25,971 bases of DNA from positions 465,266-491,236 of the forward strand of contig QPGO01000023.1 of NCBI GenBank assembly GCA_008632985.1, read 5' to 3'. Shown here piece after piece: positions 1-25,971 of this stretch. How positions within the stretch are numbered: position 1 is the stretch's first letter; each line of letters begins with the position of its first letter. The stretch comes from Psammoneis japonica. Lineage: Eukaryota. The position numbers and the translations under genes were made by a program. Below the pieces are notes generated by a model that was given only the letters and a program-made list of their open reading frames with translations, was not told the DNA's origin and searched no databases.

Positions 1-4
1 CATC

Positions 5-1324
5 CCAGATGGTTGTGCCAAACAGCACTGGCATGCTTCAGCAATGTGCTTGTTGTCTGTGTTTGCCCACAAATGCAAAGTTGTCTTTGAATGGCTGGAG
101 CACCTGGACAGGGCAAATGCAAGGTTGATGAAATTAGAGCCTGCACCAAATTTGCCACATGTCAAGAAATGCAGTCTGCAACTGTTGCAGGAGCAAGCAG
201 CAACAAGGACAAAAAATCAGAGCTGATGCTTTGGTCATGCAGTGGAGCACAGTGTCTTCTTGCAGGAGTGTTTGAAAATTCTTTTGGGGAAGAGAGTGCT
301 TTTGGGGAAGTTGTTGGTGACAGAGGAAACATGCTTTGAGGGAATCCCACAAAAAGTTGAAAGAAGTCAAAGGGTGCATCAACTGCAAGACCCAAAGGAT
401 GTTTCTGGTTCTTGCGCCAAAGTCAAGTTGCAAGGATTGGCGCAACTGTGTCAGTGCTGTTGTGGCATTGGTGCCATGTGCCATTTTTGATTAGAGCCCT
501 TTTTCCCTGTTGGCTGGGTTGCCATGTGACACATTCCTTGTGCTTGTGATGGCTGCCCAGCTCAGCTCAGACAACCTTGGGCAAACAATGAGCACAACCA
601 AGCAGCCTTGACATGCATCTGGCAACCAATCTCACAAACCCTGGCCCATCTTTGAGGGACTGAATGATTGGCAAGTTTGTCAGGTTGTTCAAACAACTGA
701 GAGTGTTGCCAACAAGGCACAGTCAGTTCAAAAACTGGGATGGATTTTTGATTGAGGAAAAGGCAGAACAAGTTGTTGCAAACAGCTGTGCCGCCCTGTC
801 TGGTGAATCTGAAAAGGGCTTTTTTCTGCTGCAACTGGATGAACTGCTGCCCAAAGCACAAGAAAATGCTGTGTGGAATGAGTTTGATCCACCTGCAAAT
901 TTCAAGGCTGGTCAGTGGGTTTGCATGGGAACACATCCAACCAAGCCGTGCTCCAAGGGCCAGAGGATGGTGCTGCACTCCTGGAGATGCTGGGGAATGT
1001 CAAACAAGAGTTTTGCTCAAGCAAATTGCAGTTGCAAACATTTTGCTGAATGAACCACCAGGCTCTCTGCAAATTCCAAGGATGTGCAAAAGGAATGAGG
1101 CTTCACTTTTCAGCCCCCATCATTTGACTGAGGATGAGCATGAAGCCATTCTTGGTGCAATGCACCAGCATGAGTCACTGGATCATTTTGAGGATTGCTT
1201 GGATGATGATGATGAAGAGCACAGCAAGCATGAAGAGCCAGAGGAAGAGAGTGACAACAAAGCAGAGGAGGACAACAGTGGTGCGTGGGTGTGGGGGTGT
1301 TGGGGGGGGGAACAACAAAGCTGA
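5..1324 (+). pseudogene. Degenerate DDE-type DNA transposase (DGCxxQY...HGKxxxDG type; superfamily uncertain, possibly Sola-like), catalytic core to acidic C-terminus
   Basis: Nt 8-31 read DGCAKQHW (expected DGCxxQYR/K). After a frameshift, nt 91-150 read MAGAPGQGKCKVDEI (expected PGHGKxxVDG). A Cys cluster HIPCACDGC lies at ~529-555 and an acidic tail at ~1190-1275. Multiple frameshifts and TGA stops. Confidence 0.65.
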
Positions 1325-4278
1325 TGAGGAGGAACAACACGATGACTGGAAAATGAACAAGCACCATGATTGTCACTTTGCATCACCTGACCACCTGATC
1401 AGATGCACCACCCATGACACAAATGTGTGCTTCCAAAGTCACAGCTCACAAGCGTTCTGCTTGCCGACCCTCCGTGCTGTTTTGCCACATTTGGAATTTC
1501 AAACTGGCACACAGCGGCCAATTGTTTTGTTTGTCAGGGATTTGCAACACATTTCACCTCATGTTTGTCATTTCCAAGACACCAGTTCAGCCACCTGACA
1601 TCACTTGCTGGCATGAAAAATGGTGGTTGGAACCAAAGATCCACTCACAGCACAAGGCATTGCAGTGGTTGTTCACTGGATGGCACAAAATCATGCAGTC
1701 ATCATTGCAGGCTGTCACATCAATTTCACCACCTGCTTCCAAGGAAAAGGTTTGCTCCAAACTGCCTCAAAACTTCATTTTGGAGTTCCTTGGTGGGAAC
1801 TTCCCCCTTCAAACAGCTGCTCAGCATGCTCTTTGCAAGCAACACCTGGCTGTTGTCAGTTTCAACTCATTTGGCAGATGTTTCAAGGTGAGATGTGTGT
1901 TCATTCATTTCCAAGTTGCCGACAAAAGACAAAACACTGGCCAGGGACAAAAACACACAAGTGTCTTTGTTTCCTCTGCAAGAGGCAGCTTTGTGGGCAG
2001 GGGCCATTCTGTGGCAACTCAATGTTTGTTGTTGACAACACCTTTTCTTCTGGCAATGAGTGAAAACCATCCTCTGGCTTCCAATCTTTCAAGTTGTTCC
2101 AAACATCTAGAAACTGTGTCTTGGAGTTTCACTTGGCAGCCCAGTCAGGGCTGTGGCAGCATTTGTGGTTGCTCTGGACAGCACAACCAACAAAATGAGC
2201 ACCCTTCAGTTGCTTCTTGGGAAGAGCATCAATCTCCTTTACACTCAACCTCTTTGACTTTGCCAACCTGGGGCATGCTGCAAATGCAATGGACTTTGCT
2301 CTTGATCTCATCATCAGTGCCTTTTTGATCTGTCTTCTGGACATTGTTGTGTTTGTGCTTGGCACATCTGATGATGTTTTAACACCTTTTTGCTTGTGAT
2401 GGCCATTCCACTTGTTGGCTCATTTGACAAACCATTCTTCAAACAACATGCAGCCCACATCTCATTCATCGAAGCAACTGGACAAGTGAGGAACAAGTCC
2501 TGATGAGTCACCAGAGCTCAAACAATTTTTTTCACATTCAACATTGCTTGAGCATTGTTGTGCATTCACTCCATCTCCATTTCTCACTGGTGGTGCTGGT
2601 CTTTGCTCAAGCAAAAAATTGTGCTCTTGCTGCTCTTGGTCTCAGCTTTGATGTGCAAAGGCCACAAAGATTGCCATCATTTTGCCATCTCCATCAATGG
2701 CTTTCAACATCTCCTTTTGGCATTCATGAAAGGCATCTCCCATCTTTTTCTCCTTCTCTCCCTTCTCCCACCTCTCCCAAACTTTCTCCTTCTTTTTTCT
2801 TTTTGGTCTCCAAGTTGTGCATCTTCTTCCTTGGTGGCTCTCTCACAATCAGCCTCCAACTCAGCCTCTGACCCATCTGCACTTGCACCTTTGCTTCCAT
2901 CATGCAATGACAGCAATGCATCCTCTTGAAAAACAAATGCCGCTGCAGCTGGGGAGCCACCTTGTGCCAATTGGCAATGTGAGACCATGTGACAACTTGA
3001 TGAGCTCCTGCTTTTTGGCATCTTCTGAGGGGTGCTTTTGTGAGTGTGACCTGACGTTGGTGACAGTTGCCACCAAAACAGAGTGTCACTTTGGAGATGA
3101 TGACTTTCACAAGGTCTTGCACCCCAATCCAGAAAAATTGGTGTTGTCATTGTCAGCCAAGAGAACCCAAAACAAATGGTTGCACCACAAAGCTGCAAAA
3201 GCATCATGCAACATTTGACAATGCATGCATGCTGTGCAATCTGTGTCCACAAGAAGTTTGGGAATGTGAGGATCCTTGTGCACACATCAATGTCCAAATC
3301 AACAACATCCTTCCTGCAGCAACACTGTGGGTGTCAGACTTCATTAACTGGCTCCACTCAGAAACTGGAGAACAACCCAACTTCTTTTCCACCTTCTTCC
3401 TCTGAGCAAGTGACTTCTGATTGGATGGAATGATGGTTGGGTGTTTCATCCGAAATCCCTCTTGATCCCAAAATGGGATGCTTTGTGCATGTGCAAACTT
3501 GGTGCGCACTCCTTTCAATGCAAAAACATCAAATTGTTTTTTTGTGTGAAGGAACTTCACTCTCCAACAAACGTCAAACATGATCTGGCCACAAGGCAGC
3601 CAACGCAGTTCTTTCAATGTCTGGGCTTGACTTGTTGGGGGCATGCATTTCCAAACCACCAATGTTGACCTCACCACAGGTGCAAAGCATCACAATGCTG
3701 AAAAATTTCCTTGGCACTCTTGTCTTCTTTTCCTTCCCTGCCAACTGCTCATCATGTGTCAACAGTGTGAAAGGTGAGAACAGAGACTTGTTGAAGCTCA
3801 GCTGCCAGACTGTGGCTGCTGCACACAAGATTCCCACATGCCAAAATGCAGCTCCCACCAAACAGAGTGAAGAAGATCTTTCCAACTTTGATCTTGATTG
3901 TCTTAAATCCACTCTGCCATGGTGGTGATGGGATGACTGCAAAAGTCAAGAGCATTGACATGAGCAAGCACCGCTGGAATCTGCGAAATCACAGAGACAA
4001 AAAAGGCAGCAGACACCTCGGCCACATGCTTGTTGACTTCTTGTTCCCAGATGAGCTGATCTCCCATCTTGGGGCCAACCTAAAAAGTTGCAATCATGGC
4101 AGTGCAATTGCGATGCAAATTGGCATTTTCTTGGGCTCGACACACTCTGCTGAATTTTCACAGGAAGATGGAACAATCCCTCCAGGCATGCAAACGAACC
4201 AGTGTTGGCAACCTGCATGTTGCCCAGCTTGCTTTGCTTTTTTGTTTCTTTTTGGCTTGAATCTTGCACACATCCAGA

Positions 4279-4324
4279 GCAAGTTTGCTCAAGTTGGCAG
4301 CCGTTTGCTCAAAGTTGGCAGCCG
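4279..4324. repeat. Short tandem duplication GTTTGCTCAA(A)GTTGGCAGCC x2 near the right end of the TE block
   Basis: Two adjacent near-identical ~21-nt units seen directly; may be a subterminal repeat. Confidence 0.6.
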
Positions 4325-4706
4325 CACACATGGCGCGAGTGCTGAAGCAGAAAGTGGCAGTCAGACGCAATGAGAGGGGCCACCACCACAAAAGGTCTTT
4401 GGCTGATTTGCCATTTCATTGCTGGCAATGCCAATGGCTGCACCGTTCATTGGGGGGGCGAGGCATGGCCCGTCGGCGTCGCGACAACATGGTCGGTTGT
4501 TGCACACCGGCACATAAAAGAGTGTGCATTCTGTCTTCTGTTGACGCAGTCCCAAGCCGGGAGTGGACGCAGTCCTAAATGCGCATGCGCGAGCAACATC
4601 AAAATTCCAGACTTTTCTGGCATTTGCAGAACGGTGAAAGACATCTCACCTTGTCTCCTTTCATGGTCAGATGTCAGTGGAATGTGCATTGCATGTAAAT
4701 TTATAA

Positions 4707-5237
4707 ATGGATGACGAGGAAGAGCTTGTGCGTCAGGTGATTAACGAGAACCCTCCCGAGGATCGAGGAGTGCGTCCCGAGTGGGGGAGTCATCAGGGAT
4801 GGCATCGAGTTGAAGACACACACCGTAACAACCATGCCGAAGGAGAGCAAGGGAAAAAATTACCCAAAGACGAAGATAGAGATGGCGGTGGTGAAGCTAG
4901 TGGTGAGGTAATCACTGACTATAACATAAATGACGACGATCCTTTGGAACCGATGATTGAAGAGAAACCAGATGGGCAAGTCAATTGGCCTGTTGGCGGA
5001 GGGGCCGTTTTTAATTCTGTTGCCATGAAACAGGTGGATGATTTGGAGGGAAGGACATCACCGGGTGCTGTAACCCATGCGTTGCGAGGTGTAAAAGTAG
5101 GGAACGGGAATGTCGCTCAAGAAAAGGCGACAATCATGCGAAAACCTCTGACAATTGGGTTTGCAGCGGTAGTCTTCTTAGTTTACATTACACTTCAACG
5201 GCGGCGCACGATGAAAAGAACGAAAGATATGTTATGA
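4707..5237 (+). CDS. Hypothetical 176-aa acidic protein with one C-terminal transmembrane helix
   Basis: ATG-to-TGA ORF with normal TA/CG content. Hydrophobic LTIGFAAVVFLVYITL followed by basic QRRRTMKR. No family recognised; could be the 3' part of a longer gene. Confidence 0.55.
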   Translation: MDDEEELVRQVINENPPEDRGVRPEWGSHQGWHRVEDTHRNNHAEGEQGKKLPKDEDRDGGGEASGEVITDYNINDDDPLEPMIEEKPDGQVNWPVGGGAVFNSVAMKQVDDLEGRTSPGAVTHALRGVKVGNGNVAQEKATIMRKPLTIGFAAVVFLVYITLQRRRTMKRTKDML

Positions 5238-5568: not shown

Positions 5569-6504
5569 TTAAGACTGCTTCATTCGCCTCATAGCAGCAT
5601 CCGCTCTTTCACATCGCAACCGATCAATGTTCCTTTCATCTTTTCGTGTTTCTGCCAAAGGCTTCCGCTGTTGTACTAGCATCACGTTGTTGCTGCTACG
5701 ACTATCGTCGCCTTCATCGTTGCCGTATCCTCCGACTGGACCACCTCTGAGTTGTCCATCAAGTTCCTTCGCCGTCATTTCTCCTGCCATCATTTTGCCG
5801 CCATCATTGAATACTGAGTAGGCAGATGAAACACCACCCATCTCCGTGTGTTCTGACGCCCATTTATCCCGCGAACCGAGCGAAAACATGCCAACAATGA
5901 GGATCAGGATAAAGACCGGGGTTGTAAAGACAGGTAAAAATGACGTAGCATGCACTGGTCTTGATGCATGTTCCTCGCTCAATAAGTCATTGCTCGCAAC
6001 TGTAATGACATCAACGTAGATTGCGATGGCAAGCGCCCCTGCTGAAACGGCCAGATACGCGGTCTTTCTTCGCTTGCCGCTCTCCTCGGCGCTGCGAACC
6101 ATTGGCCAAGAGCTTTTCCACGACCACCACACAGCCACAGCTACAGGTGCTTCTGCCCACGAAAGAATTAGACAGTGGGTTCCAAAGTTGATGGCCTCTC
6201 GCTCCACCTCTCGACTCCATGCAAGATGCAGAAGATTGACTTGACACTGGTTATGGGACACTACCTACTCTCTACTCGATGCCCTTTCTGCGAATGAAAA
6301 CAAAGATTTCTGTGAGATTGCAACAAAGGCGCTTGTGAGATTACTTCGGAACAAACAGCACGTTGACGCATCTACTATGAAACTTACAGATGCCTTATAT
6401 ACTGCGGTAAACGCGTTCTCCTTCTTCTGAGAAGACGACGTGCCATGAGCCCTGTTGGCACTGTCATCGGATGGTGCTGCTGTTGATGATGTGTTGGATG
6501 TCAT
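5569..6504 (-). CDS. SAYSvFN-domain membrane protein (SAYSD1-like), probably with one intron
   Basis: Exact SAYSVFN motif after a hydrophobic segment, followed by G.MTAKELDGQLRGG. ORFs 6265-6504 and 5569-6261 share a frame and are separated by one TAG (6265-6267). A GTAAGT donor at 6387 (phase 0) and in-frame acceptors at 6265 or 6247 would remove it. Exon structure is inferred. Confidence 0.8.
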
Positions 6505-6529
6505 AATAGTGCTTTTTATCGCGTACCGG

Positions 6530-6763
6530 TACCAGTAAAAAACCGAATTGAGTCCTTATTTTTGCCATATGTTGAATGGCCATTTTTGCCCATCATTGGC
6601 CTAAAACTGACCATTTCTTCGCATTTCCTAGCTTTTCATCATCTCTTAACGAGTTCTTTGATGATAGTCGGTTGTGAAATGGGCTTGGGATTAGCTTAAT
6701 CTAGCTGCAAAAGTTGCACCTTTTTCGCGTAATGACTCAATTCGGCCCCCCTGTACATTTCTA
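6530..6763 (+). mobile_element. MITE-like element, copy 1 (end A at 6530, end B' at 6716-6763)
   Basis: End A TACCAGTAAAAAACCGAATTGAGTCCTTAT and end B TACAGGGGGGCCGAATTGAGTCATTACG share the core CCGAATTGAGTC.TTA in inverted orientation. Both ends and internal sequence recur in reverse downstream. Confidence 0.7.
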
Positions 6764-7083
6764 CGTGTCAAGTACCAGAAGAAATTCAACATATCTCCAA
6801 ATCAGCAAGCAGCACGGAGCAGTGAGGATATATGATGTACGTGTCTTGATAAAAAAATTACATGAGAATTGTTGAATCTCGTTTCCGCTTCAAAAAATAC
6901 AAACGACCATGTTCGACGGCAACGGGCAGCCGGAGAAAACTGAAACACCCAAATCCAAACACATGGTCAGAAGCAGCAGCAATTGAAGATTATCACAGCA
7001 ACAAAAACAGTTTGATTACTTGGTTTTTTCATCATTTTATCGATCGATTCAACATATGGGTCGGATAAGGACTCAGTTCAGTC

Positions 7084-7113
7084 ATAAGGACTCAATTCGG
7101 TTTTTTACTGGTA
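7084..7113 (-). repeat. Perfect 30-bp inverted copy of 6530-6559 (end A')
   Basis: ATAAGGACTCAATTCGGTTTTTTACTGGTA is the exact reverse complement of 6530-6559. It could close a ~580-bp TA-flanked element 6532-7111. Confidence 0.9.
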
Positions 7114-7225
7114 GGGCCTAGAAATGTACAGGGGGGCCGAATTGAGTCATTACGCGAAAAAGGTGCGCCTTTTCAAAGATGTCGTTCAGAGATGATGATA
7201 AGCCACTCTCTACTAACTGCCAGTA

Positions 7226-8815
7226 CAGTCTGCTCGCTCTAACATATACTTTTTAACATATACCCTCTCTATAACGTATACTAAAAATCCGGCCTGACCC
7301 CTCGGACGAAGGTCAGACTTCCCTGTTAACAGACAGACCGACAGACCGACAGACCATTTCGCGAATCCGTGATACGACTAGTTTGAGGCGATGAAACCAT
7401 TAAGACTACACTTACAACAACTGTAAACACCCTTGTTGACCATTATTTAACTCTAAGAAGTGGTCCTGGGCTTCTTTGTACCTAACAGGACCAAAGAATT
7501 GATGAAGGCAGTCATGAGTTTTTTCAAAAATTACAGTGGTGGCCGCGCGAACATGGCCAAAGCACATGGCGAAAGCCCTCTGCCAATCAGTGGAACGCCT
7601 CGTATGTAGAAAATATACTGACACCTACACGATCGCTTTTTTTTCGGTCGCTTTGCTTGTGCACACGAAATCTCAACAAAAATGTTTGCAATTCTGACAA
7701 GATTCAAGGTTGAAATCGATGCTTCTTTGCATTTTCTAAGGAGCTGTCATCTCACTTTTTCGAGTTTTCGGTTTAAACAAAACGCAAAACGTTCACAAAG
7801 AAGCAACAAAAAAGCAACAATTTACTCAACGATTTGGGGTGTTCGCACCTCAAGCAAAACAACATTTTCCACAAGTGTCACCAAAAAATTCCTCTGACGA
7901 GTCTCTTCCTTGTGCACACGATTTCACAATGGGAACACGTCGGATGAATGCGCACAGATGCGACATGGAGAGCTGAGCGGAAGTGCTGAGGAGCCATCAT
8001 GGCAAAATGCCGATTTTCCCTGAGTGTTTGCATCGAATCCATGGCAGAGTGCAGGGTTCGTGTGGTGCGTTTTACTGTCGAGAAAAGAGCACAAGGTGAA
8101 AATTATTTTTGGTGCACGCGCAGCACATGGGAACTGAGCAAAATGCAGTGTGTGGCCATGGCGGCTTTCCGAGTCGACACTGCATCCCTCCTGTTGATCC
8201 CGAGGAACATTTGCGTTCGCACATTGCCACAGATCATAAACATTGTAAAGCTGTGCATGCCGAAAACTGTCCCTTGGACTGTTTTTTCGGCTCTCGTTTG
8301 CCACATTTTGCAGTCGTTCAGGTGCCATCAAAGTTTGTCGCGTTTACAAGGAGAAGATTGGCGAGAATGGAAAAAATGCTTTTTCATCACACCACAATGT
8401 CACACAGGCAAGATTCCCACACACAAACGATGCAGCAGCATCCTGCTGCGTGTCTTTTCTGTTGCCTCGGCACCATTGCCTCTCTCGTGTTGTTTCGTGT
8501 TGCTCTGCATGAACATGCATGCTCATCCTCGTGCGTCATGCAACATCACAGACTGAAACAAAGTGTGGCCAAATTTTTAAAGTGCTGAGTCTGCCTGTGG
8601 TCAAGGCTTTCTACGCGCGTTTCGCCATGTGAAGCGTCGTGAGTCGTGAGGGAGAAGCGCAAGATTTTAAACTGCGCAAATCTTGGCACTGACTCCACTT
8701 GCGTGGCAAACACACGCACTTTTGCACCAGGATGGAATGACATGTGCCCTCTCTACAACATGCACTAAAAAACCGCATGTGCCCCCAGTGCACACATGTT
8801 AACGCGAGCAGACTG
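7226..8815. mobile_element. ~1.6-kb non-autonomous TIR DNA transposon, Tc1/mariner/pogo-like, with TA target-site duplication
   Basis: TA|CAGTCTGCTCGC..TAACAT at 7224 and ATGTTA..GCGAGCAGACTG|TA ending 8817. Subterminal 34-bp direct repeat (7257-7290 / 8741-8774). No recognisable transposase ORF. Confidence 0.8.
7329..7355 (+). repeat. ACAG/ACCG microsatellite inside the TIR element
   Basis: acagacagaccgacagaccgacagacc seen directly. Confidence 0.7.
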
Positions 8816-8858
8816 TAGTTAAAAAAATGGCCATTCAAGACAGACTCAATTCGGTTTT

Positions 8859-14800: not shown

Positions 14801-16050
14801 GGATGGCAGGCAGCAATCGTTGTGTTTGAATTGAAGATTTCATTGCCAAAATGTCAGCGCAGCGGTTGAAAAATGAGAATCATTGGTGAGAGTGTTGAGA
14901 TGTCAGCATTTAAAAATGCTTTGAATTGAGACAACAGCAGGCTGCAAAGGGATGCGCAACACCCTTTGCAAGACACAAGAAAGCCAACAGATCACAACCT
15001 GCAAGGCCATGCCAAAGACATTGCAGACAAGGAAAGAGGAAGGGAACATCTGCTTGTGATCTAAGTCCAAGGGTGGCAGTGGTGGCAGAGTGGATGGGAA
15101 CAAGTGGAGGGTGCCACACACTCAAGAGAAAAGTGGAAGAGGTGGCAAAAGGAAAGAGCTGTTCCCAAAATCAAGGTTCCTGACTGGGGCAGACATGTCA
15201 AGCATGAAAGGTGTCACGGCCAACATGGAAGAACATGGCCAGTGGCAAATTCAGCAAGTGACGCTGGGCCGGGACATGGGAAGACTGGGCAAAGAAGTGT
15301 GTTCCAAATGCAGTCAATTCAAAAAGAAACCCCATCTCACAGTCAACAATGAAGAGTGCAACAAGTGGCAAGTGCTGCACAAAACTCTGCAGAATGAAAT
15401 TGAGCAGTGTGCTGCCAACACATCTGCCATCCTGTTGACAGAAAAGAGCCCCCAAGCACCGGTGCACACAAACCTGACAAAACGGCAGGAATCATGGGGG
15501 GGGGGAGGGGGCAAAGGATCAGAGTGATTCAACAAGCAATGTGATGATGCAAAGAAAGATGGAGCAAGTGATGCAAGGGTGCAGTTTGACACAGAGCACA
15601 GCAGCAACAACAAGAAGGAGAAAAGTGATGAGAAGGGGGCAAGAGTGTAAGTGCCAAGAAAAAACTGGTGCAGAAGAAGCCAAAAAAAGCAATGCTTGAG
15701 CTGTCCAGCAGCAACAACAAGGGCAACATGGAAAACAAAAAAGGACAAGACCACGAAGAAGAGGAAAGCTCCTCAAATGATGACGATGGGGAAGACAAGA
15801 ACAAAGCTGCAACCCAGCACAGGAACAGCGCCTCTCAGCTGCAATGCATCCACTTGTGGACTGTTGACTGGTGGCAAATTGGCAAATCACTGACATTCAT
15901 TTCTGACATGCACTCCATCATTGACATTAAATGTGCACAAAGTGAAATGAAACTCTCTGCAAATGAAATGATTTTGGCTCAAACATTTTGCAGGGGTGGA
16001 GGGTGAGAATCCTCACAGGGAAGATGAGTGGTTGTTTCACAGTGATTCAA
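8859..16050. mobile_element. Large hypermutated repeat-derived block, unclassified (may be several nested elements)
   Basis: Near-total TpA loss, with CpG loss from ~9800 onward. Protein-like but broken + strand frames at ~12050-15830. Boundaries approximate. Confidence 0.65.
8907..8964 (+). repeat. 8-bp tandem repeat GGCAGTCG / GGGGGTCG, ~7 units
   Basis: Seen directly; preceded by the palindrome ACCACT-C-AGTGGT (8864-8876). Confidence 0.85.
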
Positions 16051-16761
16051 TTTTTCTCACAAGGAGGGGTGGGAATTCTCGTGGCATAAAAAAGGTTGTC
16101 TGTCACACAGTTAGAACTGCTTCACCATGTGCGCAACCAGCTGTCTGTCACAGTTTACTTTTTTAAACAATGCAGTGGTTAAAAGATTGCCACAAGAAAG
16201 GCAGACTTGATCACCACAATGCGCACTCTTATGAGCAATGTAGATGGTCATGGCAAGGGCACCATTCCAGATGTTGGCGAGCTTTGTCCAGCTTTTGATC
16301 ACTGCCGCATCCTTCACGTCGACGCCCTTCTTGGTCCTTAACTTTTTCGCTTTGCCACCCATCCTCATTCGCTGTATGTTTCAGGGGAATGTAACCTAGC
16401 GCTGTGGGAAAGATTGCCTCCATGTGCCCATGCCAGTCAGTCAAAGACATCTCTACAAAATCCCCGGACTCACCGAGAACGATAAGTTGATGTTTAAGAA
16501 GTACAAGGATTTGACTGCAAACCAAGCTCAGTATATCGTACATTCAATGAGCGTATCAACTCTCGTATTTCCACCTAAAGATCGTCCCAGTAATCACACA
16601 GCACTTTTTATGGTATAGGTCGGTTGTGCATTAGAGACGTAGAGCACTGTAGAATTGACGAGCAGTGTCTAAAGTATTCATCTATCAAAATTGTGCGGTA
16701 CGATCTTGAGAGGTTTGTTGCCATAGTTCGACGTGCCAATTTGGGACTGAGACCAGTCATT

Positions 16762-19749
16762 CTATGGCGGATTATTGACCCCGGCACGGAAGGCAAACCA
16801 AGACACTTCAAATCCTCCTTGAGGAAATGCTACTCGAAGCTTGTAGGAGCCTGCATTAAGCCAGACATTGGCAAAAATGGTTTGCCAGCCTCCGTTTGTG
16901 TGTGGAACAGACATCCACAAGACGGAGTTGCCATTGGTTTGGACATTGATTTGACCCGAGTATGTGGGAGAGGTCACACGGGCCGCAAAAGTATACTGAC
17001 CGTTGAACGCAACATTTATGTCAAATTCAACGAAGTCTCCATTGGAAAGAGATGATATCATTTGCCCACCGCCGGCATCTGTCGAAGCTTTGATCTCCAC
17101 TCCCTGTTGACTACAGTGCTGTTCTGCTACTAAGTCGCCAGGCACAGAGAAAGTACTGCAGCCCCCTGTTGGTGGGATATTGGTAGGGGTTGTTGTCGGT
17201 GAGTAAGTCGGCGGTGCTGTTGTTGGCGCAGTCGTTGGCGCTTTTGTCGGTGTCGAAGATGGCGAAGATGTAGGGTTCCTACTGGGAGACTTAGACGGGA
17301 CCTTGGTTGGTGGAACATTTGTTGTCACAACAGAGGAAGGTGTCATCGAAGCACTGCTTTGTGTAGGAGACTGGCTTGTTGGACCGGATGTCGATGGTGC
17401 AAAGGTGGGAGATGAAGTTACGACGGACCCGCTTGATGGAGACGGCGTTGGTGGAGAAGAAGCGGTGATCGGTGGCGGAAGTGGGTTGTTGGTCCCACTT
17501 CCGAAGGACATATAGTTGAGCTTGAAACCACCCTGAGGGAAGGCTACACGAAGACGGTGAACACCTGCATCTAGGTAAACATTGGCATGTATGGTCCGCC
17601 AGGCTCCTTGGGTGTGAGGGACCGACAGCCACAGTTTCGAGATGTTATCGACTTGCAAGTTGATCTGGCCAGAATACACCGGTGAGAATACACGAGCCGA
17701 AAATGTGTACTGGTTGCTTGATGAAACATCAATGTTGTATTCAGAATAGTCGGCATTGTCCAGTTGGAAGATGTTATGTCCGCCCCCTACGTCGGATGCA
17801 GACTCCAGTTCGACGCCTTGATGATCACAGTACTGCTCGGCTTGGATGTAGCCAGGCACAGTGAAAGCAGAAGCAGTAGTGCAGTCTACCCCCGCACCTA
17901 CCGGTGATGCAGAGGGGGTGGCGGTATATTCCGTCGGGGTCCTCGAAGGGGGTGTAGTTGGTTGAACCGGGGCCTTAGATGGGGCCAATGTGACAACTTG
18001 ACTTTTCGTAGGACTCGAAGTTGCTTGGATGGGCGAAGCCGTCGGAGGGGGCGTTGATATAATCGGTGCTTTCGAAGGCGCTGTAGTAGGAATGCTTGTT
18101 GGCGAGGAATCGGGCTCGGCTGTGAAGGATACCCAATTGACATTGAAGCCACCACCAGGGAAAGAAAGCTCGAGGTTGTGGCCGCCAGAGGTGAGGTAGA
18201 AGGATGATGACAAAGTCTGCCAGGATTGCCAACCGCCAGTGTCGGGAATAGAAAAAGACGCAAGCACGTTCTCGTCGACTTTCACATCCATCAGACCGGT
18301 CGACCAGTCGGAGGCGATACGGGCTTCAAAGATGTATTGACCGCTATTGGCGACATTGATGCGGTATTTTGTATAATCTCCAGTGTCGAGGTACCCAACG
18401 TTCTGGCCTCCTCCTGTATCAGACGTTGATTCCAGCTGTACACCTTGGTGTTCGCAATAGTCTTCGGCCTGAATGAGCCCAGGGATGACAAAGCCTGCTG
18501 ACTCGCTGCAAGTAATGGAGGGCTTGATGGCCTGGTAAAAGCCGTTATGCCATTCAATACTCTCATGACCATTCTTGATATTGATCTGAGCGAAGCTTAT
18601 CATTTCATCGTACAAATGTGTTGGGGGTGTTCCACCATTGTTGATGTAGCTCTTGACTTGATTGTAGGTATCGTTCGGTGGAATAGTCCACAGGCACCTA
18701 TCATGGCTCATCTTCTTGAAGCTCCAAGGGTAGTACCCCTGCAAAGTCTGTTTGGCCCAGTCGGTGATTGCTTGAAGATTCGACTCGTCTGTCTCGCCAT
18801 ATTCACCAATGAAGAGAGGAATGTTGAGGTTGTTCGTAATTTGCTCGCGCCCATACGTACCAGATGCTGGGCCGTAGTGATGGATCTGGTAGACGAGCTT
18901 GTCGTCCCACTGACTTGTGATGCCGGTACTTGACTGGACCTGCGAATCCAACCAATCGATCTTGGTTAGGTCCGAGCCCCACCACGAGCCCTCAGCGACG
19001 ATGATGTGGTTGTTGTCAACCTCTCGAATGGCGTCGCGCATGACAAGATAAGAGGGTAGGAGCTCGTACTCACGTCCATCTTGGGGAACCGGCTCGTTGA
19101 TCAGGTCGTATCCCCATATCACCGGCTCGTTGGCATACCTGGTAGCAATATGCTTCCAAATTGAGGCCGCCAGAGCAATGTTGTCCTGGCCGTCCCAAAA
19201 CTTGACAGTACCTCTGGGTTGGCTGGCATTCGAATCGACATTGTCACTGTGATCACCAGGGTTCTGATACCCCGGTGCAGCATGCATGTCGAGAAGTATG
19301 TGCATGCCATGAGTCCTACACCAGCCGATGAGGCGATCGAAGAATTCGAATCCATCGTCGATGATCTGGGCAGTGTCCTGATCGTAGAATAGCTTATAGC
19401 TGAATGGAACACGCACCGAGTTGAAGCCAAGGCTCTTGAGATCATAAATGACCGTCTCGTCCACGTAGTTCAGCCTCCATTGGTATTCAAATTCGGCGGC
19501 CTTGTCTGAGCCACCCAAAGCATCTGCCAGCTCATTGAAGAACTGTGTGTGCGTGCGGTAATTGAAGTCGCCCATCATTAGGTAACCCTCCCAAAGCAGC
19601 CAGTTTCCCAAATTGATGCCGCTGAAGAAGTGTTCCTGTCCGTTCTCGTCGAGAATCTTGGTCCCTGATGTGCTGACAAAGGCGGCACCAACGTTGGCCG
19701 CCGAACCAACCAACAGCAGCAACGGCAAGCAGAGAAGTAGCGTTGTCAT
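16762..19749 (-). CDS. Secreted glycoside hydrolase family 5 (endoglucanase/beta-glucanase-like) with three CBM6 modules separated by Pro/Thr/Ser-rich linkers
   Basis: 995-aa uninterrupted ORF with signal peptide MTTLLLCLPLLLLVGSAA. GH5 motifs GINLGNW, GFNSVRVPF, LDMHAAPG, acid/base YDLINEP and nucleophile FIGEYG. Three PGxIQAExY..QGV...D.GGG...W repeats at ~18490-18120, ~17865-17500 and ~17150-16770. Confidence 0.92.
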   Translation of the reverse strand: MTTLLLCLPLLLLVGSAANVGAAFVSTSGTKILDENGQEHFFSGINLGNWLLWEGYLMMGDFNYRTHTQFFNELADALGGSDKAAEFEYQWRLNYVDETVIYDLKSLGFNSVRVPFSYKLFYDQDTAQIIDDGFEFFDRLIGWCRTHGMHILLDMHAAPGYQNPGDHSDNVDSNASQPRGTVKFWDGQDNIALAASIWKHIATRYANEPVIWGYDLINEPVPQDGREYELLPSYLVMRDAIREVDNNHIIVAEGSWWGSDLTKIDWLDSQVQSSTGITSQWDDKLVYQIHHYGPASGTYGREQITNNLNIPLFIGEYGETDESNLQAITDWAKQTLQGYYPWSFKKMSHDRCLWTIPPNDTYNQVKSYINNGGTPPTHLYDEMISFAQINIKNGHESIEWHNGFYQAIKPSITCSESAGFVIPGLIQAEDYCEHQGVQLESTSDTGGGQNVGYLDTGDYTKYRINVANSGQYIFEARIASDWSTGLMDVKVDENVLASFSIPDTGGWQSWQTLSSSFYLTSGGHNLELSFPGGGFNVNWVSFTAEPDSSPTSIPTTAPSKAPIISTPPPTASPIQATSSPTKSQVVTLAPSKAPVQPTTPPSRTPTEYTATPSASPVGAGVDCTTASAFTVPGYIQAEQYCDHQGVELESASDVGGGHNIFQLDNADYSEYNIDVSSSNQYTFSARVFSPVYSGQINLQVDNISKLWLSVPHTQGAWRTIHANVYLDAGVHRLRVAFPQGGFKLNYMSFGSGTNNPLPPPITASSPPTPSPSSGSVVTSSPTFAPSTSGPTSQSPTQSSASMTPSSVVTTNVPPTKVPSKSPSRNPTSSPSSTPTKAPTTAPTTAPPTYSPTTTPTNIPPTGGCSTFSVPGDLVAEQHCSQQGVEIKASTDAGGGQMISSLSNGDFVEFDINVAFNGQYTFAARVTSPTYSGQINVQTNGNSVLWMSVPHTNGGWQTIFANVWLNAGSYKLRVAFPQGGFEVSWFAFRAGVNNPP

Positions 19750-20157
19750 GGCGAACGTTTCTAGCTAATGACAACGCCAGAAGTATTCCAGTTGGATCCA
19801 AGCTCTTGCAACCTCTGTGCTACGGAACTGGGGTGTTTAAGCATAAAAGTGACGAGAACATAACACATAACAGCGGTCATTCCAGCCAACTCTGCCCATC
19901 CGCATCGTCATCGGCTTCCCGCCATTTTTTGATTTTTTATCCGGGTTCTTTTCATTGAAATCAGCATTGCTAGCGTCTGATCGTCGCTCGTCGACCTTAC
20001 GCGCGGGTCGTCCATCACGCGAGCGATGACACGCGAGAAAACCGCATCCAACATTCCATAAAACATCACTGACAATGAGCGATGAGCGGTGATTGACCCA
20101 ACATCTCCGAGTCTAGACTGGCTGATATCACTGACAGCAACAGGGACTGCTTCTACT

Positions 20158-22002
20158 ATGAAAATAAGAAATATAGATACGATCAATCTGAGAAAAGTCA
20201 CAGCATCCTGGTATAAGTCGCGAAGAACATCCCTGATGATTGAGTTATTTCTCACAACAACATGCTTCTTTAGCAGCTGTCGAAACTTTTACGTGGGCGC
20301 CTTTGTTCCAGAAATAAATCAGAAAGTGCGTCTGCCACGAGATGCTCGATACATAGCAACAACACCGCCTGAAAGAATACAACAACGTCAGAATAGTCTT
20401 CAGCTACGTGGTACTCAAGAGGCTATTTCAGATCTCGCAGAGGTGGACGTTTTGTATGGATACCGCACACAACTGGTGTATGATCCCAAACTGGAAAGAT
20501 ATGTTCCCATTTCACAGGATCATGTGTCACTTCCCAACAATATTAATGGAGAGGGTGCAGCAGACGAAAATTACGATGCTTCTTCGTCACATTTTGCTCA
20601 TCGAATAACGAGTCACTTCGCAAAGACTCCACCAGGCAGACTCGCTCGTAGAGTCAAGTCTCGAATCATGCCAACGCTCAAGGCATCCTTTCTGCCCGAA
20701 GGCGTCTCTCCATCGTACTACACGTTTGTTCGATGGAGAATTTTGCAGCGATTTGTAAACGCAAACGTTCACGTCTTTGGAACACAAAGTCTGCTCTTGG
20801 GGTTGGGATTAAAGAGCCGGTCGTTGGGCTTGAGTGCCGCGTTGAACTGGGTTCTAAAGGATGCACTGGGTAAGGTGACACGAATGGCGACGGCTTCCAA
20901 AATGGGACGCAAGTTTGATTCGGATGCCAAGAGATGGCGGTTCCGAAGTTCCCTCATGTTTGCGTTGGGCAACTTTTTGGAGATTGTCACGTACATTTTT
21001 CCACAGTTGTTTCTACTATGGGCCACTGTTGCCAATTGCTGCAAGCAAGTTTCCATGTTGACAAGTTCTTCTACTAGAACAGCCTTGTACAATTCCTTTC
21101 GCGATGGTACTAGAGAAAACATTGGTGATATTATCGCCAAGGGCGAGGCTCAAATCGCCGTGGTGGATCTCTTGGGGATTGCCAGTGGCGTTTCCTTGTC
21201 TCGAGCCGTGGGAACGTCTGTCCGATCCGTCCTGGCGGTGTACTTTTGTCTCCAAGTGATTGAAATCTTTTGCATGTACCATGAAATTCGGGCCGTGCAA
21301 TTCCGAGTCATGAATTTTGAACGACTCCAAAAGGTTGTCAATGTCTTTGTCAACCAGTATTTTGGAGACTACGAGATCGACTCCTGTATTCTACAAACTC
21401 CAAAGGAAATGGCTCAGGACGAAAAGATCTTTTTACCACCACGTCACCTGGAACGTCGAGCTATTGCGTTTGGATCGCTAAGCCGAGCCAAGCTCGCACC
21501 AGATGAATTGCAAGACTTGCTAAAAATATTCAAGAATGAAAAGTACATGATTGTAGTGGGCGCCGACGTGAAGAACCACCCCCGTCGACGAGCATCCAAA
21601 GCAGAGGAGAATTGCCACATCGTCTTGCACAAGGATGCTGGTAACAGTGACATTGTCAAGACGGTGTTGGCCTTGTCGCTGCTGCGTAAGAAGCTGAGCA
21701 AAATGAAGAATCCTCCGACTCGATCTCGAGACTGCATGGATATGATTGCCGAAACAAAGAAGGAGGCAGATCTGTTGTTTCCCGTGCTTCTCAATGCAAT
21801 GGCGAGACACGGATGGGCACCGCCGTCGAGATTTATGTTTGGACGAGTCACAATGAGAGCCGATTGGCCTTTGTCGAAAAGAAGCGACGAAAAGAGTAAA
21901 GCCAAAGAGAGTGATCCCACGAAAACGGAACCCACAAAAACAGAAACGAAAAAAGCAGAAAAGGATACCGACAAAAGGATGGAACAGCAGGATGTACCTT
22001 GA
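20158..22002 (+). CDS. RUS1/DUF647 (root UVB sensitive-like) family protein, possibly plastid-targeted
   Basis: Motifs FLPEGVSPSYYTFVRWR, AALNWVLKDALGK, FDSDAKRWRF, ENIGDIIAKGEAQ and VQFRVMNFERL. First in-frame ATG at 20158, alternative at 20236; the ORF track opens at GTG 20089. Confidence 0.88.
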   Translation: MKIRNIDTINLRKVTASWYKSRRTSLMIELFLTTTCFFSSCRNFYVGAFVPEINQKVRLPRDARYIATTPPERIQQRQNSLQLRGTQEAISDLAEVDVLYGYRTQLVYDPKLERYVPISQDHVSLPNNINGEGAADENYDASSSHFAHRITSHFAKTPPGRLARRVKSRIMPTLKASFLPEGVSPSYYTFVRWRILQRFVNANVHVFGTQSLLLGLGLKSRSLGLSAALNWVLKDALGKVTRMATASKMGRKFDSDAKRWRFRSSLMFALGNFLEIVTYIFPQLFLLWATVANCCKQVSMLTSSSTRTALYNSFRDGTRENIGDIIAKGEAQIAVVDLLGIASGVSLSRAVGTSVRSVLAVYFCLQVIEIFCMYHEIRAVQFRVMNFERLQKVVNVFVNQYFGDYEIDSCILQTPKEMAQDEKIFLPPRHLERRAIAFGSLSRAKLAPDELQDLLKIFKNEKYMIVVGADVKNHPRRRASKAEENCHIVLHKDAGNSDIVKTVLALSLLRKKLSKMKNPPTRSRDCMDMIAETKKEADLLFPVLLNAMARHGWAPPSRFMFGRVTMRADWPLSKRSDEKSKAKESDPTKTEPTKTETKKAEKDTDKRMEQQDVP

Positions 22003-22059
22003 TAGATACGCTACGTGACAATTTCATTCAACCACTGAAGCGGTTCAAAAGGTTTATCA

Positions 22060-23049
22060 TTATCGAATGCTAAAATAATGATGAAGCATATCCTGTGTTG
22101 TCCCCTCGCTCGTGTGCGAAGTATTCAAGCATAGCTGAAACACATGCTTGGATGCTTGAACTGCCAATTCGGTAACACTCGCAAGGACACCAAACGCAAC
22201 CGACCCGACATGGTGCTTGTGGATCCCACAGACCCCTTGTTGCGGATCCACAGCCATGCTTACTAGACACGAAGCGCATGCCTCCTCTTCTAGCGTCGCA
22301 TCTAAAAGCAATACAGTTTGTGGGCACTTGAGTACATGCACCGTGACAATGATTGGACACTGTTCTACACCTGGCGGTGGCAAAGCGTTGACCATATCCC
22401 CGTCTACCGCCAAATCATATGTTGCAGAGGATGGCTTTGTGCCATCTGTCTTTGTTTTGGAAGAAATAGGCGTAATGGCGGGTAGTCGAGTTTGTCGCAG
22501 GGCCGCACGCATCACCATGGCGCACACATCAGCGACATTTCCCTCACAAGCAAGAATCAACAGGTCAATGCTCAGCCTCCACACGTATTGATTTGGAACG
22601 ACACATAATCCACTTTTATCTACAGCATGTGGTAGCCAGAGACGCCTTATTAACGACTGAAGTTCCATATCAGCCTGTCTTTGTCGCCGACGAGTCGATG
22701 ACGCTGCTTGACTGGGAGGAATAGCTCGATCCACGTGAAGTTCCAGCACACCCTCGTTGGGAGCGTTGGGGGCAGGATGGACCAAGTCAGCCTTGACTGA
22801 ACACAACACATGAGTATTTCCTCCCGGTAACAAGATCCGAGCCGATCCATGTGAGAGAGCTAACGGTCCTTCTCCTGAGGAATCCAACGAGGAGTGCGTG
22901 CTCAGGGTGTAGCATCTGTAGTCGATACAAGCACGTCCATCTAAACGAGAGTCTTCACGACATCCCTCCATCACATAACGTCTTTCTGATGAGGATATGG
23001 TATTCTCGGGATTATACCTCGTTGGTGTCGCTGTATTTGTAGCAGCCAT
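22060..23049 (-). CDS. RRP42: Exosome complex RNase PH-like subunit, RRP42/EXOSC7-like
   Basis: 329-aa ORF with RLDGRxxxDYR, SHGSARI, VLCSVKA, WRLSIDLLILACEGNVAD, ALRQTRLP and LLDATLEEE. RRP42 is preferred over RRP43/RRP45 on N-terminal pattern and length. Confidence 0.8.
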   Translation of the reverse strand: MAATNTATPTRYNPENTISSSERRYVMEGCREDSRLDGRACIDYRCYTLSTHSSLDSSGEGPLALSHGSARILLPGGNTHVLCSVKADLVHPAPNAPNEGVLELHVDRAIPPSQAASSTRRRQRQADMELQSLIRRLWLPHAVDKSGLCVVPNQYVWRLSIDLLILACEGNVADVCAMVMRAALRQTRLPAITPISSKTKTDGTKPSSATYDLAVDGDMVNALPPPGVEQCPIIVTVHVLKCPQTVLLLDATLEEEACASCLVSMAVDPQQGVCGIHKHHVGSVAFGVLASVTELAVQASKHVFQLCLNTSHTSEGTTQDMLHHYFSIR

Positions 23050-23199: not shown

Positions 23200-23345
23200 A
23201 CACTATCTCTGCTCTCTCTGCTGGCTAGAGTAGGGCTAGAGAGCAGCTGCCAGCTAGCAGCCACTCTCTCCACTGCTGGAGAGTGCAGTAGAGAGAGAGA
23301 GAGAGCAGCAGCAGCAGCTGCAGCAGCAGAGCTCCAAGAGCTGAG
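23200..23345. repeat. Low-complexity CTAG/AGAG/CAG tract at the edge of the TE block
   Basis: (AG)n and (CAG)n runs; 23209-23251 resembles revcomp of 9592-9638. Confidence 0.6.
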
Positions 23346-23879
23346 TGCTGCACAGTCTTGTGGAACATTGAACCAGGAACGGCCCTGACACGTCACCGTT
23401 TAGACCAGAATGGTCAAATTTTCACTGACCACTTTTCCAGCATTCTCTGCAGGAATCAGTGCCAAGGAGCAGACTCCCAGCCAGCAGTTCTGGAAAATTG
23501 GGCCAGCGCTGTTTCTCTTTTTGTTCATTCTTGCTGCCACAGTTGTCAATCAATCATGCCAGGAGGAGGAAGAAGTGTGCAGCACAGCAGCTCTGCTCGA
23601 AATGGCGGGCGTGTGCACCCACCGATCAGTGCAACGCTGATGACTCTGTGCCGATCATCAGGGGTGACTTGGATGAGCCCCCTCCCCCAGACCTTGTCAA
23701 AAGACGCAATGAAACCACAAAGATGGCCACTGGTGACAAGTGCAGATGAAACTGTTGCCAACAATTTGTGCGAATGCAAAGTTTTGGAAAGAAAATGACC
23801 CTGATTGTCATGCACTCTTGGTGTGCAATCAGCTTCAGCAGGAGATCTGGTTGACAAGACAAAGCTCTTTTTTGGCTCA

Positions 23880-24800
23880 TGCTGATGAGACAAGTTTTCA
23901 CTGCACCTTTTGGCATCGAACAAGCTCAAAAGGAGGATGGAAAGCTCAACTCATTCCAGGACTTGCGGAAATGCAAAGATGCCATCATCATGTGGGGTGC
24001 ACCAAGATGGCATCTGCTTGCTTGCCTCAGAGCTTCCATGAAATGTTTGACACTTTCCTTGAAGAAAAAAGGTGAAGTTGATGACAGCTCAGCTGATCCC
24101 ATCCCAGTGTCACTGCACACAAGTCAGTGCTTGGGTGGGGGCCTCGGAGTCCAACAAGAACTCATTTGCGTGGTTTTGGACCATTGTGCAATGGAATTTT
24201 GTGGCAAGGTTGACATCTGTGGATCCACCACAAATTCAAAATTTCAAGCAAAGCCCAAAGAGCTTGGCTGGAAAGTGTGATGAAGCCAAGGCAGACAAGG
24301 CCAGAGAAATGCTTTCCAAGAAAAATGTGTTTGCCAGCTCAACAATTGGACCATGTGCTTCTGGACTGGCAAGGGAACATGATGTGTGATTCACGGGGAT
24401 GAACTCAAGGATGACAATGCTCTGTTCTTGGACAAAGGTGCAAAAGAGGGGAGACGACTGCTGTTGCAAAATGATGCAAGCAACTTGTTGGAGTTTTGGA
24501 GTTGCACATGGATGAAGCAATGAACCATGTGGACCCCAGCAAGGTGAGTTTGCATGGCACTTGCAAGGGCTCACCCCCCCCCCCCCCCACCACCACTGCC
24601 ATTGGGAGTGCAGTTGATTGCAGCTGGCATTTTGGTGGTGTTGGTGGTGACCAATGCTTGGGTGGATGTTGGCTGGTTTGGATCCAAGATTCAAGTGACT
24701 CATCATTCGGCATTCTCCCACCCTTCTCATTGAGCACTTGTGGATTCATTGGCAAACAAAAAGGTGAAACTTGGAATGCCAAAAACATTTGGCAAGAACA
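23880..24800 (+). pseudogene. Crypton-like tyrosine recombinase, degenerate
   Basis: Ordered motifs across frameshifts: ADPIPVSLH; FAWFWTIVQWNFVAR (first catalytic Arg at 24207); KADKA...KNVFA; HGTCKG at 24553 (HxxR with R>C); GDQCLG at 24646 (expected GDQYxG); FGILPP. Recognised from stramenopile Crypton-type recombinases. Confidence 0.75.
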
Positions 24801-25009
24801 AGAACATGACAGATGAGCACAAGACCTTCACTCCTGTTTCACTGTGCTTTGCGTGCACGATCTGTCATGCTGAATCCCTCTCCACTTCCCAGCCAAGCAA
24901 ACAACTTTCAGTGCACACACCCCATGAAACACTCAGACATTTCATTGCTCCTGTTTTGGCTCCCAGAAGACTCAGATGAAAAAGTTGCAGATGAAGAGTG
25001 ATGCTGCAG

Positions 25010-25050
25010 NNNNNNNNNNNNNNNNNNNNNNNNNNNNNNNNNNNNNNNNN
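25010..25050. other. Assembly gap (41 N)
   Basis: Run of N; true adjacency of the flanking elements is unverified. Confidence 1.
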
Positions 25051-25971
25051 TCTTGGAGGTGCTGTCACTTGTGCCATTTGTCTTCCATGGCATGTGTTCT
25101 TGCAAACTCAAATTTTCTTCCTGAAGAATTACAAACAGTTCAACAGAAGGTGATGTGGGCCATGTTTGCAAAATGCGGGTGCAACAGAAATGCAAAGTGC
25201 CCCAATTGCGTTTGGTCCCCACAGTCTCTGGGAGGTGGAGGCTTGGCTGTCAGACCACCAGATGCAGAGCAAGGAGCATCTCAGTTGCAACAGCTGGTGA
25301 AACATTCATGTGGAGTGGAAAATTTGCAATTGGGAGTTGATCAACCACACAAACCACTGCACACAGCAGTTGCTTGGATTCAGTTGAACCTGGGAGTGGG
25401 AGAGAGCTTCTTGTGGGAACTGGGCACGGTGCTTCCCCACTTGGAATCCTGTTGGCTCAGCTTGGTTTGATCTTTTTCACACAGGATCCCAGGCAAAGTG
25501 CACTTGACTCACAACTGTGTTCTTCCTCTTCAATGAGACAATGACCAGCACATCATGGACACAGTCCTTCAGCCCCAGATTTTCTCTCACTGAGAAATTT
25601 GTTGGATCAATGGCTGTCAACAACACCCACAAGTGCTGTCAGCTTCAGATGCTGCACTGTCAGATGGCCTTGCCCTGGACACAATGAAAGTGACAGGATG
25701 TCCTCTTGCCTCAGCAGCATCCTCAGCACATTGAACAACACAAACCAGGATCCAGGGCTCGGTCAGTGTGGTGGAAACTGTGTGCACTGCTGTCATCCAA
25801 CTGCTCATGTTGATTGAAAGACCCCCCCCATGGAATTGGTTGGCTCCCCCTTCCAAGACATGGATGCAAGCATCAGTGCATGTTTCTCCATCAGAAGAAC
25901 ACTTGCGCATCAGGTCACCTGAAGGTTTTGACAGTTCCTGTGCCACATCAGAAGAATCCTTTCCTGGTGAA
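25051..25971 (+). pseudogene. Non-LTR retrotransposon ORF relic, region downstream of the RT core (diatom Ambal-like assignment tentative)
   Basis: One frame reads AKCGCNRN, PQSLGGGG, EQGASQLQQLVKH, AWIQLNLGVG, LPHLESCW, PLQ*DNDQHIMD and INGCQQHPQV, matching the remembered pattern KCGYNRN / GP..LGG.G / LPHLE..W / PLQRxNDxYIMD / IN.CR.YLQV. Confidence 0.75.

Follow-up and report, generated by a model that had tools for sequence, protein, structure and literature searches.

The subject of this report is the near-complete loss of the dinucleotide TpA (TA) from parts of a 25,971-nucleotide (nt) stretch of Psammoneis japonica DNA (assembly GCA_008632985.1, contig QPGO01000023.1, positions 465,266 to 491,236), hereafter the window. 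The window is diatom nuclear DNA, since the named best relatives of the RUS protein encoded in it are diatoms. It consists of gene islands alternating with sharply bounded domains that are nearly without TA, poor in CG and rich in TG and CA; about 60% of the window lies inside these domains. The genes, the depleted blocks, a zone of intermediate depletion and the repeats are listed in Table 1, where positions are those of the window.

Table 1. Features of the window.
Feature	Position	Strand	Remarks
Depleted block 1	1..4515		8 TA sites; CG-poor to ~4100; continues past left end of window
Three open frames	3584-3925, 3795-4370, 4346-4711	+	Purine-N-pyrimidine (RNY) excess 0.10-0.13 (genes 0.06-0.14); lead into the frame at 4707-5237
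Open reading frame (ORF), 176 aa, without family	4707..5237	+	TA and CG normal; starts ~10 nt past last TA-poor stretch
SAYSvFN-domain gene	5569..6261	-	PF10260, E 2.3e-6, 27.8 bits, cut-off 25; TA and CG normal
Elements like miniature inverted-repeat transposable elements (MITE-like), nested	6530..7173		30-nt perfect inverted ends 6530-6559/7084-7113
MITE-like arms	6709-6763/7119-7173		55-nt inverted, 96% complementary
Short repeat, TA-normal copy (polarising reference)	7254..7305	+	Partner of 8738-8788
Intermediate zone	7500..9559		29 TA sites (partly lost), 111 CG (untouched); high-copy repeats and 8-nt tandem array
Short repeat, TA-poor copy	8738..8788	+	Partner of 7254-7305
Depleted block 2	9560..16086		13 TA sites
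Intronless 995-aa gene, GH5 cellulase with three CBM6 and one CBM35	16762..19749	-	TA and CG normal
Root-UVB-sensitive (RUS, DUF647) family gene	20089..22002	+	Best matches 44-63% identical; named ones are diatoms
RNase PH-type exosome subunit gene	22060..23049	-	TA and CG normal
Depleted block 3	23290..25971		2 TA sites; sole N run (25010-25050); continues past right end of window

For pooled counts the blocks were taken as 1-4500, 9560-16050 and 23401-25971 (13,562 nt), and the reference was genic plus intergenic DNA (10,150 nt). The blocks hold 23 TA sites (observed/expected 0.026) where the genic density predicts 559 (Poisson P = 1.7e-202), against 418 sites (0.62) in the reference. CG is also erased, which adds to what had been noticed earlier from the letters of the window (the sequence-only reading): 123 sites remain (0.155) where 708 are predicted, against 530 (0.89) in the reference. 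TG and CA reach 1.78 and 1.83, in line with the enrichment that reading had described. It had also called AA, AT and TT abundant. This holds for AA (1.22 in the blocks vs. 1.06 in genic DNA) and TT (1.26 in the blocks), whereas AT is mildly lowered (0.82 vs. 0.99). Its counts are exact: two TA in nt 1-600 (at 135 and 492), none at 493-2107 where it had given ~495-2107, and six in the genic line 20161-20220. In block 1 the frequencies are 0.0018 for TA, 0.0082 for CG and 0.224 for TG+CA.

The edges of the blocks are sharp. In a sliding table of 500-nt segments, TA observed/expected is 0.00-0.08 over 1-4500, 9501-16000 and 23501-25971; of the 27 segments wholly within blocks, 26 have TA at or below 0.08, and the remaining one, 4001-4500, has TA 0.03 and TG 1.49. 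The longest runs free of TA measure 1729 nt (23401-25130) and 1616 nt (492-2108). TA returns at 4515, 4576 and 4696 past block 1 and at 16087 past block 2, and the last TA before block 3 is at 23289. The depleted zones thus stop tens to a few hundred bases from genes: 4696 precedes the ORF at 4707, and 23289 adjoins the gene start at 23049. Genic parts have TA at 0.35-0.89 per 500 nt, and TA and CG are normal in the neighbouring genes, which had rightly been described as untouched.

Some local peculiarities of the blocks may be recorded here. The sole TA sites of nt 1-600 share the context AT-TA-GAGCC, which may be chance, or may mark a protected or recently copied motif. In block 2 the GC skew is +0.34 to +0.40 over 9501-11000, with TG at 59-68 and CA at 41-42 per 500 nt, and the AT skew is +0.39 over 15001-16000, with AA at 71-81 per 500 nt.

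The losses and gains in the blocks largely balance. A transition leaves a base in its purine or pyrimidine class, and pyrimidine-purine (YpR) steps total 0.228-0.238 in the blocks against 0.242-0.247 in genic DNA, with G+C unchanged, and the TG+CA gained (977) amount to 87% of the TA+CG lost (1,121), both relative to genic density. The direction of change can be read from the short repeat at 7254 and its TA-poor copy at 8738. Over the first 28 nt (7254-7281) the copies differ at seven positions, six of them TA>TG/CA and one CG>CA. When coded as purines and pyrimidines, the pair is identical at 34 of 34 positions, the best such self-match in the window. Paralogues of the window elsewhere were also compared, with 40 of 666 differences displayed. 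Among these 40, the window has CA where the paralogue has TA at 4010, 8559, 8677 and 8696, and the reverse never occurs; TG/CA in the window faces CG in the paralogue in eight, and the reverse is seen in four. Two of the 40 entries, at 633/634 and 8192/8193, are adjacent CA<>TG swaps, which is how two copies would look after each had resolved one ancestral TA or CG on its own.

Logan contigs were available from three runs of one sample in one study, for which no library type is recorded and from which the assembly itself may have been built. The contigs were compared with the window over 1-20000 at a likeness of at least 80%, and block 3 lies outside that stretch. Inside the blocks the window differs from single-copy contigs at four positions, three of them CG<>CA (3286, 11121 and 13650), which points to a CpG change that is still polymorphic.

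In a forward simulation, TA>TG/CA and CG>TG/CA alone were applied to the ordinary DNA of the window until TA had fallen to 3% and CG to 15% of the starting number, with relative rates (T 4, C 2, G 1, A 0.4) that we set from the per-base flank fits given below. The simulation reproduces the block profile over all 16 dinucleotides, the root-mean-square error (RMSE) falling from 0.0205 to 0.0042 and r rising from 0.862 to 0.990; starting from related diatom loci, RMSE falls from 0.0216 to 0.0049. The side effects appear as well, AT going down and GC, AA and TT going up. A context-free version does less well (RMSE 0.0060) and misses the AT decrease and the GC increase. The conserved YpR total, the repeat pair, the simulation and the flank hierarchy agree, and they support the reading, already proposed from the letters, that the pattern is best seen as TA>TG/CA transitions, that is, A>G at TpA on either strand, in bounded domains.

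Survival of TA depends on its flanks. Nineteen of the 23 sites left in the blocks are of the form YTAR (Y, pyrimidine; R, purine), compared with 67 of the 418 sites of genic DNA (Fisher P = 2.6e-11). Measured against genic density, survival in the blocks is 0.000 for RTAY, 0.006 for RTAR, 0.024 for YTAY and 0.21 for YTAR, and in the intermediate zone it is 0.11, 0.36, 0.42 and 0.66, in the same order. Sorted by zero, one or two TAY targets, it falls from 0.21 through 0.014 to 0 in the blocks (trend P = 3e-14) and from 0.66 through 0.38 to 0.11 in the intermediate zone (trend P = 0.02). One-target survival (0.36-0.42), when squared, gives 0.13-0.18, near the 0.11 observed for two targets. The hierarchy fits independent hits per strand on 5'-TAY-3', since RTAY, RTAR, YTAY and YTAR offer two, one, one and no preferred targets, respectively. 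The strands are alike: survivors of the YTAY and RTAR classes number 8 vs. 9 and 3 vs. 1. The dose fitted to the base at +1 in the blocks is at its bound for T, 2.9 for C, 1.1 for G and 0.55 for A (23 sites), and in the intermediate zone 1.23 for T, 0.76 for G, 0.61 for C and 0 for A (29 sites). The products follow. In the intermediate zone, where TA loss acts alone, the product classes rise in the order that the hierarchy predicts: RTGY+RCAY by 30 per kb, YTGY+RCAR by 13 and RTGR+YCAY by 5, while YTGR+YCAR changes by -12.

The same zone separates the two losses. The second block had been placed at ~7900-16050; it is fully depleted only from ~9560, and 7500-9559 is merely intermediate. Per 500 nt, TA observed/expected is 0.15-0.28 in this zone and CG is 0.85-1.06, and CG density is 53.9 per kb compared with 52.2 per kb in genic DNA. 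At 4001-4500, TA is at 0.03 but CG still at 0.51, so that TA loss reaches beyond CG loss at block edges. Within the blocks CG survival varies between 0.10 and 0.28 by context, a weak dependence. Since 7500-9559 has lost TA while its CG is intact, TA loss and CG loss are separate processes, and we infer that the intermediate zone is young and the blocks are old. The zone carries a tandem array of an 8-nt, CG-containing unit (about 11 units at 8894-8981). Since no other bin comes near the summed contig depth of the one that holds it (9589), the array is probably either a microsatellite of very high abundance or the core of some high-copy element. Pieces of the MITE-like family recur within the zone at 8823-8858.

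How far does repetition go with depletion? From one run, 1491 contigs were placed on 1-20000: 302 at least 99% alike, 270 at 95-99%, 433 at 90-95% and 486 below 90%. With 919 of the 1491 below 95%, there are many diverged paralogues for parts of the blocks. Summed contig depth, which is not copy number, is raised over 1-2001 (543-651), 6004-10005 (256-9589), 12007-13340 (403-512) and 14675-15341 (299), and near single-copy over 2669-6003, 10006-11339 and 13341-14674. The blocks are repeated in part, and diverged relatives of these parts clearly occur elsewhere in the run. The sequence-only reading had held the pattern to be confined to repeats and directed by them. The first claim stands to the extent that the bounded domains contain repeated DNA; the single-copy-depth bins 2669-4669, 10006-11339 and 13341-14674 are equally and fully TA-depleted. 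The second does not stand, because the MITE-like elements, repeated elsewhere by their summed depth (342-922 over bins 6004-7337), keep a normal TA (0.62-0.89) over 6530-7173, and repetition alone is thus no trigger. Position in a domain, rather than repetition as such, seems to be what counts.

The blocks had been taken for transposons, for which their frames give no support: of 159 stop-free frames of at least 60 aa in the blocks, none reaches a curated Pfam cut-off, and there are sub-threshold chance matches only. In the Protein Atlas, the frame at 7990-8553 (+) reached a best score of 0.78, without a family. A homologue search with 3795-4370 (+) gave 43 candidates of similar length only, none at E <=0.01. 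In self-comparison, both ordinary and purine/pyrimidine-coded, the three blocks are unrelated, and the sole hidden match is the pair at 7254 and 8738. RNY codon periodicity, which cannot be erased by transitions, is at the null level in the blocks (mean contrast 0.046-0.067 vs. 0.052), compared with 0.167 in the GH5 gene. The frames across 3584-5237 (+) alternate between two phases, and codon-like periodicity spans the TA boundary there. As 3584-4711 keeps a periodicity of genic level, a multi-exon gene or pseudogene may lie here, its upstream part swept by TA erasure.

The data show the signature, its confinement, its flank hierarchy and its independence from CG loss. We favour two transition processes in silent domains, with the TpA process of the same kind as the hypermutation reported in the alga Bigelowiella natans, here run to saturation, and put the probability of this reading at about 0.72. 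The domains would be old, mostly non-coding and partly repeated DNA. The first process would be fast, specific to TpA and directed from A:T to G:C, a hit on the top-strand A yielding TG and a hit on the bottom-strand A yielding CA. The strands would be hit independently, at a rate set by the base 3' of the A in the order T > C > G > A, which would be why RTAY is lost first and YTAR last. The second and slower process would be the ordinary CG>TG/CA loss expected from 5-methylcytosine (5mC) deamination in methylated silent DNA. We infer that the first is run by the host against silenced or foreign DNA. As the edges are sharp beside genes and the euchromatic MITE-like repeats are spared, the pattern suggests that domains are chosen by a chromatin mark rather than by sequence homology.

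The chemistry is more tentative. Our candidate, to which we give somewhat less than even odds, is the conversion of adenine to inosine, which reads as G, with a TadA/ADAT2-like polynucleotide deaminase at work on chromatin that carries a mark. An adenine deaminase is favoured because the strict T before A matches U33-A34 of the natural tRNA substrate. A broader proposal is less likely than not: that a programmed, chromatin-targeted DNA adenine deaminase system with a T-A-pyrimidine preference exists throughout the stramenopiles, alveolates and rhizarians, in diatoms and chlorarachniophytes alike, goes to completion in diatoms, where silenced domains lose every TpA for good, and serves as a defence that mirrors repeat-induced point mutation (RIP), is independent of cytosine methylation and is far faster than CpG decay.

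The comparison with B. natans deserves detail. According to the main text of that study, a mutation-accumulation experiment yielded 302 nuclear point mutations, 231 of them within two viral insertions, a nucleocytoplasmic large DNA virus (NCLDV) and a virophage (Mettrop et al., bioRxiv 10.64898/2026.01.13.699255). Of these 231, 230 were A>G/T>C, invariably at TpA, and the rate was ~6e-7 per site and generation. The mutation rate was raised ~1000-fold in the viral regions, only some lines were affected, the genome has 124 TpA-poor, CpA+TpG-rich clusters, and an ADAT2 homologue was proposed as the agent (10.64898/2026.01.13.699255). The earlier statement that no described pathway matches the pattern is superseded by that preprint. 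The two cases are alike in that TA>TG/CA is the only change, on both strands, in bounded silent or non-host regions with ordinary genes spared, and in the long-term footprint of TpA loss with CpA/TpG gain, many of the targets being unannotated. They differ in several respects. B. natans is a rhizarian chlorarachniophyte and the diatom a stramenopile. The NCLDV region has a Rho of 0.45, whereas depletion in the diatom is far deeper, with runs of 1.6-1.7 kb without TA. The targets there are viral, whereas no viral or transposon protein is found in the blocks here. The old blocks are co-depleted in CG and show a 3'-neighbour hierarchy; the main text on B. natans mentions no CpG change and reports no such hierarchy. 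A>G/T>C on TpA only, measured there as a rate of de novo mutation, is seen here as a dinucleotide footprint. With these differences, the diatom pattern is best filed with the TpA hypermutation of B. natans, run to saturation. What is new is the flank hierarchy together with a co-occurring but separable CpG decay, seen in one 26-kb window. Full-text literature searches found no report of TpA loss or repeat hypermutation in a diatom or other stramenopile.

Other known systems share parts of the picture. Fungal RIP changes C to T at CpA, which makes TpA, and needs duplicated sequence. Like the present process, it consists of confined transitions at one dinucleotide and destroys coding capacity. 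The direction, however, is opposite, as TpA here falls to 0.026 and CpA/TpG rise to ~1.8, and the pattern had aptly been called the reverse of RIP. Also unlike RIP, unique stretches within the domains are depleted and short repeats outside them are untouched. Diatom DNMT4 enzymes group with fungal RID, their function being unknown, and DNMT5a-dependent methylation of diatom transposable elements is documented (PMC9998398). Deamination of 5mC explains the CG half of the old blocks, but it cannot remove TA. The recognition sequence of TadA is U(-1) A(0) C(+1) G(+2), and bacterial TadA prefers C at +1 (PMC10586758). The likeness to TadA/ADAT2 lies in the T/U needed at -1 of the edited A, only TA being lost here, and is a resemblance of signature, not membership. 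The differences are the natural substrate, a tRNA loop and not chromosomal DNA, and perhaps the +1 preference, which here appears to be T > C > G > A rather than C.

Several points weigh against the reading we favour. The CpG loss is absent from the main text on B. natans, and the paired decay is new and unexplained. The direct polarised evidence comes from one short pair and four displayed paralogue sites. Of these, the site at 8696 (CTAC>CCAC) violates the flank rule, and the pair at 7254 and 8738 holds one changed YTAR and one unchanged YTAY, contrary to the rule. Only 23 and 29 surviving sites enter the flank fits, in which genic DNA stands in for the ancestor, and in the intermediate zone the doses for a 3' G (0.76) and a 3' C (0.61) are inseparable. 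The MITE-like repeats that adjoin the blocks are untouched. The term 'foreign DNA' is unproven, as neither a transposon nor a viral protein was recognised in the blocks and their codon periodicity is at the null level. Finally, because the runs come from one sample and one study and may be the assembly's source, their agreement with it is not independent of chemistry.

Among rival explanations, a thymine route is the most serious, although we consider it clearly improbable. The thymine of TpA would carry a modification, such as 5-hydroxymethyluracil (5hmU) made by a TET/JBP-type dioxygenase that silent repeats attract. Misreading or misrepair of the modified base would then yield T>C, the context being (A>G>C>T)-T-A. 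As TA is palindromic, A>G and T>C look alike, and every signature result fits this route equally well. Dinoflagellate 5hmU is a thymine modification with a preference for TA and TC; it acts as a silencing mark on transposable elements and, on repeats, overlaps with 5mC. It is described as an epigenetic mark and not as a cause of TA erasure (PMC11572971). In the diatom blocks, TC is not depleted: the GA/TC frequency is 0.061 compared with 0.069 in genic DNA, a shift that the TA model itself predicts. Mass T>C change from 5hmU is moreover an assumption, and 5hmU in diatoms has no support in the literature examined.

Error-prone patch repair is less probable again. Here lesions in methylated DNA, such as T:G mismatches left by 5mC deamination, would recruit mismatch repair and a polymerase-eta-like enzyme; at WA motifs polymerase eta places G across from T, which is how the A:T phase of somatic hypermutation in antibody genes proceeds. 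Such a scheme would tie CG methylation to A:T mutation within the same domains, and it could yield TA loss without CG loss at 7500-9559 if the initiating lesion were repaired correctly. Yet WA includes AA, which is raised in the blocks (1.22 vs. 1.06) while TA is at 0.026. This selectivity for TA over AA is far above that for which polymerase eta is known, and the changes are almost purely transitions to TG/CA, with a mass balance of 87%.

A marginally weaker alternative still is intrinsic composition, in which elements are born without TA and CG, or are kept so by selection, for example to escape a nuclease or sensor. It agrees with the failure to find a long TA-rich relative of any block. 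The blocks, however, have no recognisable coding capacity and thus nothing obvious to select over 13.5 kb, they are unrelated in sequence yet have the same composition, and a TA-normal relative of one piece exists (7254-7305). A rate process also accords with the graded change in the intermediate zone and with products that match their substrates.

The least probable of these is a sequencing or assembly artefact, in which heavily modified bases of silent DNA are miscalled (5mC as T, modified A as G). The unrecorded library type and the possible identity of the runs with the assembly's own data leave it some room. The contigs, made of exact 31-letter words and with records of up to 315 kb, argue against it. 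In the run that gave the 1491 contigs (X1), 61-6555 and 9506-20000 are covered by eight long contigs of word depth 58.9-70.8, each with 0-2 differences from the window, and depth over the blocks equals depth over genes (63-71 in block 1, 60-70 in block 2). Contigs of a second run (X2) cover mainly genic parts, and from the third (X3) none was placed. The TA/CG-poor blocks are thus reproduced by exact-word assembly at single-copy depth, and an assembly quirk, against which the sequence-only reading had itself warned, is unlikely. Even depth, long records and the sized 41-N gap in the assembly point to accurate short reads, which are blind to base modification. Nor is a consensus conversion of 96-100%, with a clean two-strand hierarchy, typical of modification-induced miscalls. 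ADAR-type RNA hyper-editing copied into DNA, which would change A to G on the transcribed strand and tolerate U or A as the 5' neighbour, fits poorly, like polymerase eta, because AA is not depleted and the strands are hit alike.

The significance of the two-process reading goes beyond this window. The first report of TpA-specific hypermutation in silent DNA dates from 2026 and concerns one rhizarian alga, in which the enzyme is unknown. If the saturated footprint in the diatom is true, the process probably occurs widely in ecologically dominant algae, and it can strip essentially all TpA from over half of a genomic region, which bears on repeat annotation, the dating of transposable elements, models of base composition and the stability of transgenes in diatom biotechnology. 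The flank hierarchy, with RTAY fastest, YTAR slowest and the strands alike, provides a specificity fingerprint against which candidate deaminases or thymine-modifying enzymes can be held. Partly depleted zones such as 7500-9559 are natural sites for measuring a live rate; the scope here is one 26-kb window from one sample, and what it holds is a footprint, not a rate.

Two observations on the gene islands remain. Fifteen metagenome loci around the RUS gene of related diatoms (~100 kb, gene-dense) have no TA-free 500-nt segments, the minimum TA observed/expected being 0.32; they are uninformative on repeats, because repeats rarely assemble in metagenomes. The GH5 gene may have been acquired horizontally by the diatom, as its combination of GH5 with CBM6 and CBM35 is typical of bacterial secreted glycanases.

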